From a virus (taxonomy: Duplodnaviria > Caudoviricetes): a stretch of 64,000 bases of DNA. This document shows, one piece after another, positions 31,273-39,952 of this stretch. The position numbers and the translations under genes were made by a program. Positions within the stretch are counted from its first letter, which is position 1, and every line of letters begins with the position of its first letter. The notes beneath the pieces were generated by a model that was not told where the DNA came from, did not search any database, and saw only the letters and a list, made by a program, of their open reading frames with translations. The stretch is taken from IMG/VR virus record IMGVR_UViG_3300042870_001240. One strand, given 5' to 3'.

Positions 31273-33312
31273 ATGATAGAATCAAAAGATGGTAACGGAC
31301 CTATTAAAGATAAAGGAAGTAGTGGTGATTCTGCCACACCTGTTTTAGACAACTTTAGTAGAGACCTAATTAAATTAGCCGAAGAAGGTAAATTAGACCC
31401 TGTAATAGGTCGAGAGAGAGAAATAACGAGAATCGCTCAAATCCTTTCAAGACGCAAGAAAAACAACCCAATCATTATCGGTGAACCAGGTTGTGGTAAA
31501 ACCGCAATTGCCGAAGGATTGGCGATTAAAATTTTTAACGGAGATTGTCCAAGAAATTTAATGGATAAACGAATATTATCTTTAGATATGACTTCAATAG
31601 TTGCTGGGACAAAATATCGTGGACAATTTGAGGAACGTATGAAGGTAATCATTGAAGAACTTCAAAACGCACCAAGTATTATTATTTTTATCGATGAAAT
31701 ACACACAATTGTTGGTGCAGGTAATTCATCTGGTTCAATGGACGCATCAAATATCTTTAAACCCGCACTTGCAAGGGGAGAAATCCAATGTATTGGGGCA
31801 ACAACTTTAGATGAGTATCGTAAGAATTTTGAAAAAGACGGAGCCTTAGAAAGACGATTCCAAAAGGTAATTGTCGATTCCGCAACAAAAGAGGAAACAA
31901 TCCAAATCCTACAACACAGTAAAGAGAGATACGAAAATTATCATAAAGTAAAATATTCTGACGAAATCTTATCACTATGTGTTGATTTAGCTGAACGATA
32001 TATCACAGATAGAGAATTTCCAGATAAGGCGTTCGATATTATTGATGAGGTTGGAGCTAGAAGTCAAGTTGAGGTGAAGATGCCCGAAATTATTGAGAAG
32101 TTAAAAGAACAGGCTCAGGACATTAAACAAGAAAAACTTAATGTTGTTAAAAAACAAAACTATGAAGAAGCCGCAAGTCTAAGAGATAAGGAAAGACGAA
32201 TTTTAGATAAGTTAGATTCAGAAAAGAAAAAATTTGAGTCTGAATTACAAACACAAAAGAAAGAGGTTACTGTCGAATTAGTATACGAAGTTGTTTCAAA
32301 TATGACTAAGATTCCACTATCTAAATTAAATGCTAATGAGACTCAATTATTGGCCAAATTAGACGAAAGATTAGGTAGTAAAGTTATTGGTCAATCTGAA
32401 GCGGTGTCAAGAATTGCAAAGTCTATTAGAAGAAATAGATTGGGTATTAAAGACCCTAACAAACCAATTGGGTCTTTTATTTTCTTGGGGTCAACAGGTG
32501 TTGGTAAAACACATTTGGCAAAACAATTGGCTAAAGAAATGTTTGGTAGTGAGGAGAATTTGATTAGAATGGATATGTCAGAATTCCAAGAAAAACATAC
32601 CATATCTCGTTTAATTGGCGCTCCTCCAGGATATGTTGGTTATGATGAAGGAGGACAATTAACCGAACAGGTTAAAAACAAACCTTATTCTGTAATCTTA
32701 TTTGATGAGATTGAAAAAGCAAACAAAGACATCTTTTCAACATTGTTACAAGTATTAGACGATGGTCATATTACTGACGGATTAGGTAGAAAAATTAACT
32801 TTAAAAATTGTGTCATCATTATGACTTCAAATATTGGAGTTAAAAAACTACAGGATTTTGGGACAGGAGTTGGTTTTAAAACTTCATCAAACACTTACGT
32901 TAAGGAAGAACATAAACGAGACATGTTGAAAAAAGAACTTCAAAAATTCTTTGCTCCTGAATTTTTAAACAGAATTGACGAGGTCGTTATTTTTAACACA
33001 TTAAAACGAGATGAAGTTAAACAAATCGTTAAATTAGAAATGGATAAACTTTGTGAAAGATTAGTTAAATTAAAATATAACATAACTTATGATGAATCCG
33101 TATTGGATTTAATTTCAGAAGTTGGTTTTGATGAAACCTATGGTGCAAGACCATTAAAGAGAGCTATCCAAGACAAAGTTGAGGATTTTATTTCTGAAGA
33201 AGTTTTAAAAGGAGTTATTCTTGAGGACGTTAGTTATATTCTATATGTCGATAACACCGATGTTAAACTAAAGATAGTTAAAAAGACTAAAAAGAAAAAA
33301 GGGGAAAATTAA
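31273..33312 (+). CDS. clpC: ClpC-like AAA+ chaperone/protease ATPase lacking the N-terminal Clp-repeat domain
   Basis: GEPGCGKT and GSTGVGKT Walker A, FIDEIH and FDEIEK Walker B, GARPL, UVR-like KQNYEEAASLRD. Confidence 0.9.
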   Translation: MIESKDGNGPIKDKGSSGDSATPVLDNFSRDLIKLAEEGKLDPVIGREREITRIAQILSRRKKNNPIIIGEPGCGKTAIAEGLAIKIFNGDCPRNLMDKRILSLDMTSIVAGTKYRGQFEERMKVIIEELQNAPSIIIFIDEIHTIVGAGNSSGSMDASNIFKPALARGEIQCIGATTLDEYRKNFEKDGALERRFQKVIVDSATKEETIQILQHSKERYENYHKVKYSDEILSLCVDLAERYITDREFPDKAFDIIDEVGARSQVEVKMPEIIEKLKEQAQDIKQEKLNVVKKQNYEEAASLRDKERRILDKLDSEKKKFESELQTQKKEVTVELVYEVVSNMTKIPLSKLNANETQLLAKLDERLGSKVIGQSEAVSRIAKSIRRNRLGIKDPNKPIGSFIFLGSTGVGKTHLAKQLAKEMFGSEENLIRMDMSEFQEKHTISRLIGAPPGYVGYDEGGQLTEQVKNKPYSVILFDEIEKANKDIFSTLLQVLDDGHITDGLGRKINFKNCVIIMTSNIGVKKLQDFGTGVGFKTSSNTYVKEEHKRDMLKKELQKFFAPEFLNRIDEVVIFNTLKRDEVKQIVKLEMDKLCERLVKLKYNITYDESVLDLISEVGFDETYGARPLKRAIQDKVEDFISEEVLKGVILEDVSYILYVDNTDVKLKIVKKTKKKKGEN

Positions 33313-33325
33313 TTCCCTTTTTTTT

Positions 33326-34153
33326 TTAATCAAATAGTATGTAATTATTTTTTGGTTTAGGAGTAAAGGAATGTTTTGTATACCCCAATTTCTCAATCAT
33401 TTTTTTACCTATTTCGATTCCACTGTAAACATCTTCAATTACAACATATTCGTTTGGTGTGTGATAATTGTAATACCCGATTGCAAAATTAATACATGAA
33501 AAATCAAAAAGTTGTTTTAACGCATATACGTCAGTATAGGGGTGAGATTGGTATTTTTGTCTTTTCTCAAATCCCTCTGTCAACACCTCATCACAAGATG
33601 TAAAAAATTCAGTATCTCTATCAAATAATTGAACCCCCATACAAAATTCTGAAACCATCCAATTACCAGGAGCATCAAATTGAATCGCATATCCCACATT
33701 TGTGAAGAATATTTTATCCGCCTTTCTTGACCCATGACAACCTGTTTCTTCAGATACAAAGAACGCGGCCTTTAAGTTAGGAAGTTCTTTTAATAACTCC
33801 AAACAAGCATAAATTCCACATTTATCGTCACCACCAATACCTGTTGGGTTACCCTTATCATTATACGCCTTTAAGGACGGCTTCAATTCATTCTGAGCGT
33901 TTGGTAATAATCCCTCACGAATATTGATTGTGTCAATATTGTGTACGGTATCGGTGTGAGCAACAACACATGGAAAATATTCAATATTTTCATCGGTTTG
34001 TTTTGTTGCGTAAATGTTAGACATTCCATCAACAAAAAACGGGATATTGTTTTCAGATAACCAATTGGTGATGAACTCAACCATTTGTTCTTCTTGGTAC
34101 GTTTTGGATGGAACGGACAAAACACTCTTTAAAAGTTCGTAGTCTCTTTGCAT
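33326..34153 (-). CDS. M20/M28-family metallopeptidase
   Basis: AHTDTV, GGDDKCG, EETG, GYYNYHT. Confidence 0.8.
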   Translation of the reverse strand: MQRDYELLKSVLSVPSKTYQEEQMVEFITNWLSENNIPFFVDGMSNIYATKQTDENIEYFPCVVAHTDTVHNIDTINIREGLLPNAQNELKPSLKAYNDKGNPTGIGGDDKCGIYACLELLKELPNLKAAFFVSEETGCHGSRKADKIFFTNVGYAIQFDAPGNWMVSEFCMGVQLFDRDTEFFTSCDEVLTEGFEKRQKYQSHPYTDVYALKQLFDFSCINFAIGYYNYHTPNEYVVIEDVYSGIEIGKKMIEKLGYTKHSFTPKPKNNYILFD

Positions 34154-34162
34154 AACACAAAG

Positions 34163-35566
34163 TTAAACCCTTTTTCGGAAATTCAAGATTTTATTTTCAA
34201 ATAATTCAGGATTATGTAGGAAGTCTTGGAATTCCTCAAGAGTATAACTTCTTGGTTCACCCATTGTCCCACCTGATTTGTAATATGTTAAAAATATTTT
34301 ATTAGTTTTTGGGTCTATTTTTTGAATTCTAAAACTTTCGGATGGATTCCCTCTAGTTAATTTATAAGCTCTATTTAAATCGTATTGTGATAAAACTTTA
34401 TCAATTATTTCTCTAAATTTAGTTAGATTTGGATACTTATTACTATCCTCAATTTCTTCTAATATTTTTTCTAACTCATACTTTGCGTTTCTATTAACAG
34501 AATCGATATCTAAATTTCCACTACCATAGTCGTACATAGAGTCCTCATATGGTCCAACCGACATTGTATGACCAATCTTTGATAACATCTCTGTTAAGTC
34601 CACATGTCTTTCTTTCTCAATATTATACATCGCCAATAAGACATTAACAGTTGTTACATATGAGTAAAAACATCCTGACTTAGCAAATAACCCGTAATTT
34701 TGAAATGCGTCACATAATTCATTTGTTACATACTCTTCAGCGGCTTCTTGCATTGCAGAATTTTTTTCATTTGAAAAATCATCAATAATGTTGTCAATTT
34801 GTCGGCTAAAAGTGTCTCTCAATAATTCTGAAGCATCCTTATATGGTTCGTCATCCTTAAGTTCCGCAATTTCAGGTTTAACATAAATTAAAATTTGTTT
34901 AATTAACGCAATGTTTTCTTCATTAAGCTCACTCATTAAATAACCCTCATCCCAATCATGATATCCCGTATCACTTGAGTAAAACATTGAGTCGTAATGG
35001 TATGATGAACTAAATAAAGTTTTTAAAAACCATATATCCCCCTCACCTAAATCAAATAAATTAAAATAATCCTCATTATCGGTAAATTTAAGTGTAACCA
35101 TACTTTTACCAGGGGTGTTCTTGTTAAATTTGAATCCTCCTATTAATCCATCAATATCGGATAACTTATATACATCAATTTCTTCCCCACCACTAATTCT
35201 CTTTAATGCCCCATAAATGTTACTAACACCAATGGCCTCATAAAGTTTATCTCTAATTACAGGAAATTTCTCAAGAATATCAGTAATTGTTAAACTATTG
35301 TTGTCATAACCAATGTATTCAATTACTCCTTTATGTGGTTTGTGAATTAAATACGATAATGTCGGAGTAAGATAATCACCTTCTTTATCGACAATAATAT
35401 AATTATCCCCATCACGATATCTATTATAATATTTAGAAAAAAATGGAGGCCCAAAATATTTTGCGGACTCCAAAGTGTTACATTTTAATAACATAACCTT
35501 ATCATCTTCATAGAAGATTTGACTACCGTCATAAGCTTCGTTTTTGTTTTCCTCTGTCTCTGTCAT
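34163..35566 (-). CDS. hypothetical protein
   Basis: Long ORF; ATG at 35566 follows TATTTAT (35578-35584). Confidence 0.65.
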   Translation of the reverse strand: MTETEENKNEAYDGSQIFYEDDKVMLLKCNTLESAKYFGPPFFSKYYNRYRDGDNYIIVDKEGDYLTPTLSYLIHKPHKGVIEYIGYDNNSLTITDILEKFPVIRDKLYEAIGVSNIYGALKRISGGEEIDVYKLSDIDGLIGGFKFNKNTPGKSMVTLKFTDNEDYFNLFDLGEGDIWFLKTLFSSSYHYDSMFYSSDTGYHDWDEGYLMSELNEENIALIKQILIYVKPEIAELKDDEPYKDASELLRDTFSRQIDNIIDDFSNEKNSAMQEAAEEYVTNELCDAFQNYGLFAKSGCFYSYVTTVNVLLAMYNIEKERHVDLTEMLSKIGHTMSVGPYEDSMYDYGSGNLDIDSVNRNAKYELEKILEEIEDSNKYPNLTKFREIIDKVLSQYDLNRAYKLTRGNPSESFRIQKIDPKTNKIFLTYYKSGGTMGEPRSYTLEEFQDFLHNPELFENKILNFRKRV

Positions 35567-35593
35567 ATTTATATCAAATAAATACTTTGAAAA

Positions 35594-35645
35594 TTTGTTA
35601 TCGTCAGATTTATTCGTATATTTGTAAAACAATAGTTCTTTAACA
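35594..35645 (+). promoter_or_regulatory. Bacteroidetes-type promoter plus boxA-like element for tmRNA
   Basis: TTTG(35594)-N19-TATATTTG(35617), then AGTTCTTTAACA (35634-35645). Confidence 0.7.
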
Positions 35646-35649
35646 TCAT

Positions 35650-36063
35650 GGGGGTAAATTGGAATTGACTGACATAGTTGGTTGTTCGGGGCATGTCAAG
35701 GCTGAGCTAACCTTGTAAAACTGGTTTAAATCGATATACGGCAACGTTATCAACAAACTTTCTGCAGTAGGATTAATCCGCACTGAAGAAAATGTTTCAG
35801 TAGCCTAAGGCGAAAAAAACAACGGGTAGATAGACTTATACCTAGGAACAGAACAGTCTTCATGGTGTGACATCTACCATAAAAGGTGTAAACTCTAACC
35901 AATCAGAGGATAATCAGATGGCAGAGGATAAGTTCTCAGTAAACCGAACTGTATAATAAGGGAACTGTGGGATTTCGGATTGTTAGATTAAACAATGACC
36001 TAAACATGTAGTCCTTAATAATCGTTATGGACAACTACGAGGGTTCGAGTCCCTCTATCTCCA
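35650..36063 (+). ncRNA. ssrA: tmRNA
   Basis: 5' GGGGGTA pairs with 3' TATCTCC-A including G3:U70; T arm GAGGG-TTCGAGT-CCCTC; 5' GGAATTGAC; tag ORF 35740-35808 GNVINKLSAVGLIRTEENVSVA*. Confidence 0.9.
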
Positions 36064-36120
36064 CATTTAACATTTTTGTTCTTTTACTATATTTTGAAAT
36101 ATTTATAGTGAAAGAACAAA

Positions 36121-36801
36121 ATGCCAAGAAAAAAACCTAATTTCCACTATATCTATAAAACCATTTGTAATTTTAATCAAAAATACTATATCGGAATGCA
36201 CAGCACATCTAATTTAGAGGATGGGTATATGGGTAGTGGTAAAAGATTAAGATATTCAATAAGAAAGTATGGTAAGGATAACCACACTAAAATTATTATA
36301 GAGTTTTTACCTAACAGAGAATCATTAAAAGAACGTGAAATTGAAATTGTTAATTCGGATTTATTATTAGATGAAAATTGTATAAATCTTAAAACAGGTG
36401 GTTATGGTGGAGGGAAATTTTATTCTGAAGAACATAAATTAAAATGTTCTAAATCCGGTAATGAAATGTTTTTAAAAAAAATGCAAGATGAGGAGTATCG
36501 GAAAGAGTTTTCGAAAAAATTAAGTAATGCTTATAAAAAACAAGTTCTTGAAGGTAAACGAGAAAAAAAATATTTTTACCATTGGAATGGGAAAACTCAC
36601 ACAGATGAATCTAAACAAAAAATGAGTGAAGTGAAGAAAGGGACTGGTATTGGTATTAAAAATTCACAATACGGGACTTGTTGGATAACTAAAAATAACG
36701 AAAATAAAAAAATTAAAAAGACTGACATTAATCTGTATTTAGATGATGGATGGGTTAGAGGTAGAAATACAGGTATAACCAAAAAGATAACTAAAGTATA
36801 A
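36121..36801 (+). CDS. GIY-YIG (Seg-like) homing endonuclease with a NUMOD3-like motif
   Basis: YIY...YYIGMH...YMGSG; HTDESKQKMSE. Confidence 0.85.
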   Translation: MPRKKPNFHYIYKTICNFNQKYYIGMHSTSNLEDGYMGSGKRLRYSIRKYGKDNHTKIIIEFLPNRESLKEREIEIVNSDLLLDENCINLKTGGYGGGKFYSEEHKLKCSKSGNEMFLKKMQDEEYRKEFSKKLSNAYKKQVLEGKREKKYFYHWNGKTHTDESKQKMSEVKKGTGIGIKNSQYGTCWITKNNENKKIKKTDINLYLDDGWVRGRNTGITKKITKV

Positions 36802-36802
36802 T

Positions 36803-36836
36803 AAAAAACCCCACCTGTTTAGGATGGGGTTTTTTT
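36803..36836. terminator. bidirectional terminator
   Basis: AAAAAACCCCA...TGGGGTTTTTT between convergent genes. Confidence 0.8.
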
Positions 36837-36837
36837 G

Positions 36838-37137
36838 TTAGGATTTAAATCCCTCAATGATTTGTAATAGTTTGTCAGCTCGTTTGTCAGTATGACTTTT
36901 AGATTCTTGATGAAGTTCATCGATACGTCTATAGATGTGGTCAACAGTAACGTCTAACTCACGTTTATTTTCGTCTAAAATTCTTTGGTCGTAATCAACA
37001 TCTCTTTCATAAGATATTCTGAAATCTTCCAAATCTTTTTTTGTTCTAACAACCTTAACTAACCCCCAAACAAGAGCAACAATAAAAATTATTGCAATAA
37101 TCGAAAGGACACCTAAAGTAAAATAAAATGTTTCCAT
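36838..37137 (-). CDS. small membrane-anchored coiled-coil protein
   Basis: N-terminal TM helix FTLGVLSIIAIIFIVALVWGLV. Confidence 0.65.
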   Translation of the reverse strand: METFYFTLGVLSIIAIIFIVALVWGLVKVVRTKKDLEDFRISYERDVDYDQRILDENKRELDVTVDHIYRRIDELHQESKSHTDKRADKLLQIIEGFKS

Positions 37138-37206
37138 TATTTTAAGATTTTGTTTTTTATACCTCAAGGGTAATAAAATATAATGGAGAGTGTAGAAAAA
37201 GGAAAT

Positions 37207-37250
37207 AAAAAAAAGGGAGATAATGATGGCTAGTCAAAATCTCCCTTTTA
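37207..37250 (-). terminator. terminator closing the RNA-gene transcript
   Basis: Minus strand AAGGGAGAT...ATCTCCCTTTTTTTT. Confidence 0.7.
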
Positions 37251-37632
37251 GCCTAAACATTGTCACTCGGTAAGTTCAACCCGAGGTAGTGATTAGTGAA
37301 ACCTCTACCTAACTTCTATCGTGAGTTGTGATTGGTGTACGACCTAAACGTTTGTATGTTTATTACCCTTTATTAATTTTAAGACTTAAAGGGAACGTGG
37401 TTATAACAAAATCCACATCCTATAAAAAAAGTCCTGACAATTTTTACCACTATATCACCTCAGGTTGTCGTGTCAAAGACAGATTGGTACTTATTACTTT
37501 TTATATTTTCTATGAGGTAGAATCGTGAAGTCACAAGATAAAACAAACACGCAAAGACCCAAATCATTATGTTTTCCTTCAGTTTAAACTCGTGGTGGGT
37601 GTTATGATTTAAAAAAACACGTACGGAGTCAC
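37250..37632 (-). ncRNA. candidate ~380-nt structured RNA (unassigned)
   Basis: No credible ORF; multiple inverted repeats; lies between tRNA-Met and a terminator. Confidence 0.45.
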
Positions 37633-37636
37633 TTAG

Positions 37637-37709
37637 TTGCGGGAGAAGGATTCGAACCTCCGACCTAAAGGTTATGAGCCTTTCGAGCTACCAACTGCTC
37701 TATCCCACT
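37637..37709 (-). tRNA. tRNA-Met(CAT), initiator-like, no encoded CCA
   Basis: Cloverleaf; loop CTCATAA; unpaired 1:72 (A:A); TTCGAAT T loop. Confidence 0.9.
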
Positions 37710-37727
37710 ATATTTGGCTATAAATAA

Positions 37728-38590
37728 GGCTGAGATTACACCTGTTTATGAGAAACTTTAGTAGGATTATTGATTCCCCACATATCCACTTCCTTTTGAG
37801 AAGTATTCCTCAGTGACGATTGGTTAGACCAATCACTTCTTGAGATATCAGTTACTCTCTTATTACTTAACTCTCTTCAAAGATGCCTCTCCGACTCTTC
37901 CTTATGGGAATAGAGGTTTTTGGTAAGAATACAGTCAGACTTGCGGTCTTCATGTGCAATGAACGGCTCATTACTATGTAGTCACCTTTCACTGATACCT
38001 AACGGACACTTTTGCTTATTTTTAGTTAATTTTACTTAATTTAGTATAAGTTACGTGTTGTGGATGAATCAAAGTAGCGGTCCGTTGAAGGATTCGTTCT
38101 CTTTTGGAAAACGAAATACCAAACTACTCCGTGAGATGTCCCCATCTCCATATTTTAAGATTACTTCGTACCAAGACTTTGGTAAGTCTTTGATAAGGAC
38201 AGTAGCGACACCACTCGTTCTCTATCTTACCTTTCGGTTTTAAGTCCCCTCTTATATTGGTAACCGCAATCATGTAGTTGGAGACCACATTTTTTGCTTG
38301 ATACCTATGGGTTATTCTTATTGGAGTTCCCTCCTCAGACTGACAATCCACATTGCCGTTCCACCCAACCACTTTCCCTAAAGCGTTGCCCTCAGTACTA
38401 AAGGTCGGATGATATCCCACTTGTGTACTCGACCTCGGTTTCCCAAGACGCGAACCTACTAACACTTGAAGATTCACTTTATCCCACTTTCGTGGTTTAT
38501 TTAACGACCATACACGGCCGATTATCTTTTTTCAGTTATCTCAGAATCAACCCGAAGGTCTCATCATAAACATCCTGATGGATAATACAA
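37728..38590 (-). ncRNA. ~860-nt large ornate RNA, GOLLD-like
   Basis: No credible ORF; many GNRA/UUCG-capped hairpins; directly upstream of a tRNA in a phage; own promoter and boxA. Confidence 0.65.
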
Positions 38591-38593
38591 TAA

Positions 38594-38661
38594 TTCAAAG
38601 AACATATCGGACGTTTCCGATTTTGTTTTACAAAGATAGTAAACTTTTTTGATTTACCAAA
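38594..38661 (-). promoter_or_regulatory. promoter + hairpin + boxA-like leader, copy 1
   Basis: TTTG-N19-TATCTTTG (38661-38631), hairpin ATCGGA-AACG-TCCGAT, TGTTCTTTGAA. Confidence 0.7.
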
Positions 38662-38737
38662 TCTTTTTTTGTTTTTTTTTGAGATTAGGAAACCACGATT
38701 TTACAACTAACTGTCAACCCATTCTCATTTTGTTTTA

Positions 38738-38769
38738 CAAAGATAAGACATTTTTTTCAATCTGTCAAA
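38738..38769 (-). promoter_or_regulatory. Bacteroidetes-type promoter
   Basis: TTTG-N20-TATCTTTG. Confidence 0.6.
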
Positions 38770-38778
38770 TCTTTTTAT

Positions 38779-38895
38779 GGTTATTATAACTGATGCGGTA
38801 ACATATTTCATTTACACTTTAAATGCGAAGGAGTCCCGTAGTCACTTTCCTCACATACAACAGTAGCCCTACGGACCTAGACTGTTTCTATAACC
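38779..38895 (-). ncRNA. candidate ~115-nt structured RNA
   Basis: Terminal GGTTAT/ATAACC pairing plus crossed ACAGT/ACTGT and CCGTAG/CTACGG helices. Confidence 0.4.
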
Positions 38896-38901
38896 AATTT
38901 C

Positions 38902-38969
38902 TTCAAAGAACTAAATCAGACGTTCCCGATTTGTTTTACAAAGATAGTAAACTTTTTTGATTTACCAAA
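38902..38969 (-). promoter_or_regulatory. promoter + hairpin + boxA-like leader, copy 2
   Basis: TTTG-N19-TATCTTTG (38969-38939), hairpin ATCGGG-AACG-TCTGAT, GTTCTTTGAA. Confidence 0.7.
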
Positions 38970-39194
38970 TTTTTTTTTGTTTTTTTTTAAAAGAACTTTT
39001 TTAAATAAAAAAGGTATTGTATAAATATCACCACTTCTTTCAAATGTTTTACAAAGGTAATAAAAAAATTTTATCTGACAAGACCTGTAGGTTATTTTTT
39101 TATAAAAAATAAATTTAAAAAGAAAAAGTGACGAATAAGTCGACTTATCGTAAATAAACACGTATTTATTTATACAAATAAAAACAACAAATTT

Positions 39195-39347
39195 ATGAAA
39201 AAAGTAATTTTCGCAATAGTAATTGCAGGTAGCGTAATGTTATCATCATGCGGTGGTTCAACCACAAAATGTGAAGTCTCATCGACTGATACAACAACAG
39301 TTGATTCTGTGGTAACTCAAACAGTCGACACCGTTAAAACAAAGTAA
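39195..39347 (+). CDS. small lipoprotein (50 aa, not in ORF track)
   Basis: MKKVIFAIVIAGSVMLSS-C lipobox; Thr/Ser/Asp-rich tail; TATTTAT at 39163; terminator follows. Confidence 0.75.
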   Translation: MKKVIFAIVIAGSVMLSSCGGSTTKCEVSSTDTTTVDSVVTQTVDTVKTK

Positions 39348-39356
39348 TTAGTTTAG

Positions 39357-39384
39357 TCCCCTTAGAAATAAGGGGATTTTTTTT
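39357..39384. terminator. terminator between convergent genes
   Basis: TCCCCTT/AAGGGGA stem with T tract. Confidence 0.7.
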
Positions 39385-39952
39385 AATGGTTAATTAATTT
39401 TTTTATTTTATTAATTTCCTCTTTAATAAGTGGGTTACCATTTATAATATTTTCCTTAAAAAACGCATTACCAACAACACCAAATGGTAACGCAATTAAA
39501 TCAATGAATGGATTTCGGGTTTTACCTGTTCTATAAGTGGATGTAGATTTAGTTTCCTTTTCCTTTTTATTCTCAACGTCTTTTTCTCCACCGTTAGATG
39601 TTACAATATTTCCTGATAAAAATTTATTGGCATCAATCTTATCATTATTCTTATCCGTCACCGCATACTCAATTGGAGAATCTCCAACAGTCCCAATAAT
39701 ACTCCCTTGTTTAACTTTATCCCCAACAAATGACATTATTCGATTAACCTTACAAAAATTAGAGAAATAAGTATTACCATTAATATTATGAGCAATTTTA
39801 ATATTACCGTCACATTTAAATTTATCTGAAGATACAACAACACCTTCTGATGGGTTACGTATTACGTCAGAATTATATGAAGAGAACTCAATTGTTTTTG
39901 AAAACATCGGAGAACTTATTCTGGCATTTGGTAATGGATTTAAAATCTTCAT
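39383..39952 (-). CDS. M23-fold protein with degenerate Zn ligands
   Basis: EGVV...IKIAH...VGDKVKQGSIIG; HxxxD and HxH motifs absent. Confidence 0.6.
   Translation of the reverse strand: MKILNPLPNARISSPMFSKTIEFSSYNSDVIRNPSEGVVVSSDKFKCDGNIKIAHNINGNTYFSNFCKVNRIMSFVGDKVKQGSIIGTVGDSPIEYAVTDKNNDKIDANKFLSGNIVTSNGGEKDVENKKEKETKSTSTYRTGKTRNPFIDLIALPFGVVGNAFFKENIINGNPLIKEEINKIKKLINH

Follow-up and report, generated by a model that had tools for sequence, protein, structure and literature searches.

Very few natural RNAs are known to assemble into a cage without protein, and GOLLD is among them. ROOL, a large ornate phage RNA found near tRNA islands, forms an RNA-only cage, and in bacterial rRNA operons the leader (promoter, boxB hairpin and boxA) assembles an antitermination complex of NusB, NusE, NusA, NusG, SuhB and S4. 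GOLLD has already been described as phage-borne, tRNA-associated, lake-derived and cage-forming, with a less conserved 5' region, and its representative env-38 was resolved by cryo-EM as a homo-14-mer RNA-only cage (PDB 9MEE; PMC12286853). Here, we describe a GOLLD locus of a lake phage together with the sequences that surround it, and compare both with these systems.

Identity and extent of the RNA

The window (i.e. the whole 64,000-nt stretch of viral DNA analysed here, IMG/VR record IMGVR_UViG_3300042870_001240) carries on its minus strand a full-length GOLLD RNA that extends from approximately 38626 to 37727. Its conserved core measures about 877 nt (5' start at 38603; 3' end at 37727, where the Rfam match ends), and transcription likely starts near 38626-38623. 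The features of the locus, in the direction of transcription, are as follows:

38631-38661, minus strand: promoter of the Bacteroidota sigma-A type, with the -33 element TTTG (38661-38658), a 19-nt spacer and the -7 element TATCTTTG (38638-38631)
38606-38621, minus strand: leader hairpin AUCGGA-AACG-UCCGAU, at the position of a boxB-like stem, with compensatory changes
38594-38603, minus strand: boxA-like element GUUCUUUGAA, which forms the 5' motif of this GOLLD clade and hardly varies
38522-38593, minus strand: variable 5' hairpin region, which includes ACC-UUCG-GGU and varies in length among homologs
38132-38521, minus strand: GOLLD 5' domain (nhmmer, covarying helices and homology to env-38); by homology, the cap domain of the cage
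37727-38131, minus strand: GOLLD 3' domain (RF02032); by homology, the ring domain of the cage
37943-38015, minus strand: kissing pair (G38015:C37943 and C38014:G37944) of the linker flank GCAAAAG with a CGCAA loop
37884-37906, minus strand: two adjacent hairpin loops, CAUAA (37906-37902) and GGCA (37887-37884), whose inner dinucleotides are self-complementary
37710-37726, minus strand: spacer of 17 nt between GOLLD and the tRNA, with no terminator within
37636-37709, minus strand: tRNA-Met (CAU), called by ARAGORN and Rfam
36803-36835, minus strand: first strong intrinsic terminator downstream (13-bp stem and T-run)

The 3' half (37727-38131, minus strand) matched the Rfam GOLLD family RF02032 with 319.1 bits (E = 1.4e-90; gathering score 150) over model positions 1-416 of 416, a model limited to the 3' region that is conserved throughout GOLLD. 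Rfam ROOL gave no match at its gathering score or at E up to 1, and no other Rfam family matched the GOLLD region at E up to 1. Homologs were searched for in IMG/VR with two short motifs, one of 22 nt taken around the CCAC-GAAA-GUGG hairpin and one of 15 nt from the 3' domain, and more than 116 contigs matched in either case; nhmmer, with the whole 877-nt RNA as query, produced end-to-end alignments with more than 150 viral contigs. The collection comprised 118 unique homologs, of which 67 fell under 90% identity (these being 61-81% identical to the window copy).

The RNAalifold consensus of the 5' half (38132-38603) contained about 20 covarying helices in which 87-100% of the pairs were canonical and compensatory changes on both sides were numerous, as opposed to 20-60% canonical pairs in controls for which the 3' partner was moved by one or two columns. 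A second MAFFT/RNAalifold run, on 30 diverse 5' domains, recovered 100 pairs (73 with two-sided changes). Moreover, the 5' half was found to share successive sequence blocks with GOLLD env-38 (both domains, from about position 82 onward), a comparison made as visible shared blocks against the printed construct sequence.

These results bear on a sequence-only reading of the same stretch, which had proposed a GOLLD member or a new family at 37728-38590 (~860 nt). The region was right and its limits slightly too narrow (see the extent given above); the elevated G+C content was borne out (40.2% over 37727-38590 vs 31.6% for the whole window), and the five minus-strand tetraloop hairpins it had listed are all present, position and sequence alike. 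Four of the five fall within the covarying consensus, and the fifth, ACC-UUCG-GGU (38559-38550), caps the stem of variable length, which in homologs usually ends in a (C)UUCG(G) loop and whose 38559/38550 closing pair is 87% canonical and covarying. Two of the checks it had suggested, the Rfam comparison of GOLLD with ROOL (the former well above gathering, the latter unmatched) and the collection of homologs for covariation (helices that covary relative to the shifted controls), came out in favour of GOLLD.

The stretch is a complete GOLLD RNA with both domains, and neither a new family nor ROOL. A new ornate-RNA family, similar to GOLLD only in size and context, could be argued for from the fact that Rfam covers just the 3' half, the 5' half being without a database match of its own. 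Yet the 3' half fits the GOLLD model along its full length with a score more than double the gathering value, the 5' half shares blocks with the published env-38 construct and the published tertiary pairs were recovered (see below); the Rfam match and the shared blocks leave this alternative practically no probability. Much the same applies to the idea that the region encodes a protein: the only sizeable ORF (38124-38477, minus strand, 117 aa, GTG start) is open in the window copy and in three homologs, but its product has no Pfam match, the aligned frame is interrupted by stops in all 66 non-redundant homologs, its columns are those of covarying RNA helices and its three codon positions vary to the same extent (0.197, 0.222 and 0.204, with no third-position wobble). 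Considering that the ORF is not conserved and carries no codon-position signal, the interval is non-coding, and we give scarcely any credence to a protein product. The sequence-only reading had described the region as ORF-free and had named a conserved coding frame as speaking against an RNA; one frame is open in the window copy, and it is not conserved.

Tertiary contacts and loops

Contacts outside the nested structure were inspected through a mutual-information scan of the homolog alignment. The strongest non-nested covariation signal was registered for C38014:G37944 (q590:q660), which is CG in 56 sequences, GC in 52 and AU in 7, and the adjacent G38015:C37943 (q589:q661) is GC in 116 of the 118 sequences. 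Matched by position and sequence, this kissing pair presumably represents J13/15-L20, a contact first seen by covariation and later recognized by cryo-EM as the intermolecular bridge B7 (PMC12286853). Covariation was also found for three pseudoknot helices: 38086-38080 with 38007-38001 (q518-524/597-603), 37985-37981 with 37817-37813 (q619-623/787-791) and 37786-37784 with 37736-37734 (q818-820/868-870). In the window copy, the helices, the three pseudoknots and the kissing pair are intact.

The 3' domain contains an A/U-rich variable linker (~38069-38016), a segment of low alignment confidence in the Rfam alignment, that is closed by the covarying helix q518-524/597-603. The GOLLD linker was reported to harbour tRNAs in some cases (PMC12286853), and the Caulobacter phage phiCbK agrees with this, its annotated tRNA-Gly (105107-105179) being located in the linker, within the GOLLD 3' domain (105042-105528).

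Across homologs, the first of the two adjacent hairpin loops reads CGCAA (92 sequences), GUCGA (18), CGGCA (3) or CAUAA (4), and the second reads GGCA or CGCA. The CAUAA form is found only in the window lineage, namely in the window itself, a near-identical 22.6-kb fragment and two contigs that are 93% identical. In the published structure, the symmetric kissing loop L21a (bridge B8, residues 656-657) shows a GC/CG switch (PMC12286853); these residues land in our first loop at a 44-nt length offset and the switch agrees, which suggests that the first loop is the L21a equivalent. Since AU is also a palindrome, a contact of the L21a type can be kept in the window lineage, though it would be weaker.

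A leader resembling that of rRNA operons

The sequence upstream of the conserved helices is organized as promoter, hairpin and boxA-like motif, which are kept at fixed spacing in about 80% of the homolog leaders. TTTG and TATCTTTG conform to the -33/-7 consensus of Bacteroidota sigma-A promoters. The pattern TAnnTTTG was present in 82 of 102 unique homolog leaders (vs 3% of shuffles) and ended 24-28 nt before GUUCUUUGAA in 60 of the homolog leaders, with TTG at -33 in 79. The leader hairpin recurs in homologs in the form AUCAGG-AAAAG-UCCUGA. For the first 130 nt, in which hairpin length varies, RNAalifold produced no consensus and the alignment was read by eye; as GUUCUUUGAA is almost invariant, covariation is uninformative on whether it is single-stranded.

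When compared with the published boxA consensus GYTCTTTAANA, which is gamma-proteobacterial (PMC5725501), GUUCUUUGAA agrees at 9 of the 10 specified positions. A counterpart was found in the 5' ends of 97 Bacteroidota 16S rRNA genes (each with at least 400 nt of leader), whose consensus GTTCTTTGAAanatTg is matched by the consensus GTTCTTTGAAAtAtT of the GOLLD leaders. The motif G[CT]TCTTT[AG]A occurred in 50 of these 97 leaders (vs 0.8% of shuffles), in most cases between 85 and 200 nt ahead of the 16S start (range 47-276), and its density reached 1.29 per kb in the leaders vs 0.038 elsewhere in the same loci (a ~34-fold difference). The first 16 nt of the RNA (GTTCTTTGAATTATTG) are identical to several Bacteroidota 16S leaders, and a hairpin-prone segment precedes the motif in both GOLLD and 16S leaders. 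Within the window, the phage tmRNA gene (35600-36066, plus strand, Rfam 78.6 bits) shows the same layout as the GOLLD leader, with the promoter element TATATTTG followed by GTTCTTTAACA directly before the tmRNA start, GTTCTTTAACA being in full agreement with the published boxA consensus.

Judged by sequence, the GOLLD genes of this clade use an rRNA-operon-like leader. No boxA was found upstream of GOLLD in the Caulobacter phage phiCbK and the Acinetobacter phage AM24, so the leader is specific to this clade and not general to GOLLD. In the 635-kb phage LR745206 it occurs twice (before the tRNAs and before the GOLLD of this phage), with an AACG-looped hairpin. Moreover, the published ROOL alignment (PMC12286853, supplement file 5) includes a few sequences that begin with UUCUUUGA, and a boxA-like leader may thus also precede some ROOL RNAs. 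Our literature search found no link of GOLLD or ROOL to boxA or Nus factors.

The motif and the hairpin could instead be structural or processing elements of GOLLD (e.g., an RNase site or a cage contact) that have nothing to do with Nus loading, their likeness to the rRNA boxA being incidental or due to shared processing enzymes. Such a role would sit well with a motif that is transcribed and opens the conserved RNA in more than 100 homologs, with its absence from the GOLLDs of other phyla, and with LR745206, where hairpin and motif are kept even though a tRNA, and not a promoter, lies directly upstream. It is at odds with env-38, which assembles cages without these ~80 nt, meaning that the cage fold does not include the leader; it also leaves aside that the motif precedes the unrelated tmRNA of the same phage at the same promoter distance, and that motif and flanking consensus precede the 16S rRNA in roughly half of the Bacteroidota genomes sampled. 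Because the tmRNA and 16S pattern fits a transcription signal of stable RNAs better than a GOLLD-specific contact, we regard a purely structural or processing role as rather unlikely, and proceed with the leader as a candidate site of Nus loading.

Further upstream, a near-duplicate of the GOLLD promoter and hairpin with GTTCTTTGA was observed at 38946-38903 (minus strand), followed by ~120 nt without an ORF, and a second TATCTTTG promoter at 38769-38738 (minus strand). These upstream promoter units (38738-39060) may represent separate small RNAs or tandem GOLLD promoters.

The 3' end and the tRNA-Met

The tRNA-Met is adjacent to the RNA, as had been noted before, with a spacer of 17 nt in place of the earlier ~18 nt. 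No terminator was found between GOLLD and the tRNA-Met or directly after the latter, and the transcription unit possibly ends at the terminator at 36803-36835. GOLLD and tRNA-Met are probably co-transcribed, and co-transcription with release by RNase P would be the simplest reading of the arrangement. Among homologs, a tRNA lies at most 60 nt downstream in 9 of 111 (tRNA-Met in 8 of the 9) and at most 150 nt upstream in 14 of 114 (tRNA-Met in 8 of the 14). Given that only 9 of 111 homologs have a downstream tRNA, tRNA-linked processing is not the general way of 3'-end formation.

Genomic setting and putative host

The window encodes genes of tailed phages (major head protein, portal, large terminase and endolysin), its terminase sharing 26-29% identity with those of huge uncultured phages, a Microcystis phage and Flavobacterium myoviruses. 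Thus, of the Bacteroidetes large phage proposed from the sequence alone, the phage is well founded, while a Bacteroidota host is only probable, as suggested by the promoters of the homolog leaders (TTTG/TAnnTTTG, 80%) and the weak terminase similarity to Flavobacterium phages. The 5'-domain motif had zero matches across ~185,000 prokaryote species genomes, giving no prophage or host link, and hence this type of GOLLD seems confined to free phage genomes.

The GOLLD neighbourhood is rich in RNA genes and in genes resembling those of RNA repair, with a tmRNA, the tRNA-Met, a tRNA-Leu and a weaker third tRNA match (47065-47152, minus strand) that was detected by Rfam only (32.5 bits, barely over gathering) and not called by ARAGORN. 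Beside the RNA genes lie a T4-type RNA ligase 1 (41345-42376, minus strand), a calcineurin-like phosphoesterase (42420-43070, minus strand) and a cyclic-phosphate processing receiver-domain protein (44625-45047, minus strand). Two ORF-poor stretches (37250-37632 and 45095-45552, both on the minus strand) adjoin tRNA genes; neither had a meaningful Rfam match at E up to 1, and their only weak, sub-gathering hits overlap the edge of a terminator at 45059-45129. A ClpB/ClpC-like double AAA+ ATPase (679 aa) and an adjacent M20-family peptidase (31273-34153) are located within 2.5 kb of the tmRNA, and a GIY-YIG/NUMOD3 homing endonuclease gene (36121-36801) follows it. The window also holds an adenylosuccinate synthetase homolog that is short (336 aa; 43121-44131, minus strand; Pfam 1.4e-81) and also matches a PurZ-type PHROG family, which suggests that the phage may make 2-aminoadenine DNA.

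Habitat and expression

The stretch 37600-38700 was found in 20 public runs. In 14 lake/freshwater runs (type not recorded as RNA, guessed to be DNA), 0.89-0.94 of its sampled words were present. In six lake metatranscriptome runs (five studies, six samples) the fraction was 0.45-0.64, and the same runs contained 0.11-0.25 of the words of the 6-kb region 35000-41000, shares too small to count as evidence that most of the matching words lie inside GOLLD. The habitat of the phage is the freshwater lake.

We consider it very probable that the locus encodes a full-length, expressed GOLLD RNA. An inactive relic, no longer expressed or functional, might be suspected on account of the rare AU variant in the L21a-type loop. 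This variant is, however, retained by relatives at 93-99.9% identity; the helices, pseudoknots, kissing pair, promoter and leader are all intact and the six metatranscriptome runs contain about half of the sampled words, which makes decay of the locus highly improbable.

A model for the synthesis and assembly of GOLLD

We reason that the host RNA polymerase would start at the TTTG/TATCTTTG promoter, after which the hairpin and GUUCUUUGAA would act like the boxB-boxA leader of rRNA and recruit NusB/NusE and their partners, so that GOLLD and tRNA-Met could escape Rho termination and fold co-transcriptionally; we would give this step about an even chance of being right. RNase P cleavage at the 5' end of the tRNA, which we find somewhat more probable than its opposite, would then free GOLLD with a 17-nt tail. 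By homology with env-38, and in view of the conserved bridge nucleotides, it is quite likely that the RNA would assemble into a D7 14-mer cage, with the 5' domains as caps and the 3' domains as rings.

Taken as a whole, we tentatively suggest (with a confidence that falls a little short of even) that this clade of lake phages makes GOLLD as its host makes rRNA: the leader of promoter, hairpin and boxA, which the constructs examined to date lack, would load the Nus antitermination complex, which would protect the 0.9-kb RNA and help it to fold before cage assembly, and AU in place of GC/CG in the equatorial kissing loop could ease the opening of the cage. As for function, GOLLD is constantly accompanied by phage tRNAs, tmRNA and RNA-repair genes, which suggests a role tied to translation or RNA during infection.

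As one more family member the locus is of small value, and its use lies in helping to define the natural transcript. Compared with the published construct, the natural unit would start ~80-100 nt further upstream, opening with a promoter of the host type, a hairpin and a boxA like that of rRNA, and would run into the tRNA-Met. GOLLD would thereby join the stable RNAs whose expression by the phage resembles that of host rRNA. Additionally, the rare AU variant of the palindromic kissing loop is a naturally occurring case on which the proposed inter-shell contact can be tested.

Comparison with known systems

The window copy and env-38 have in common the 3' domain, the blocks and helices of the 5' domain, the A/U-rich linker, the pseudoknots, J13/15-L20 and the palindromic loop dinucleotides, and both are phage-encoded, derived from environmental water and located next to a tRNA-Met. 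They differ in origin (a marine metagenomic sample for env-38, PMC12286853; freshwater lakes for the window copy), in the order of the genes (env-38 is reported downstream of its tRNA-Met, whereas the window copy has the tRNA-Met downstream) and at the L21a dinucleotide, reported as GC or CG and here AU. The env-38 construct also lacks ~80 conserved 5' nt of the window copy, comprising the boxA-like motif and the UUCG-capped hairpin. ROOL, by contrast, is unrelated to GOLLD in sequence and fold.

With respect to the rRNA operon leader, the product here is a phage RNA, and the likeness is one known from sequence, with Nus-factor binding putative. Within these bounds the two correspond in the order of their elements (promoter, short hairpin, boxA), in GUUCUUUGAA and its flanks, which equal the Bacteroidota 16S-leader consensus, and in what comes next: a long, untranslated and highly structured product, followed by a tRNA.
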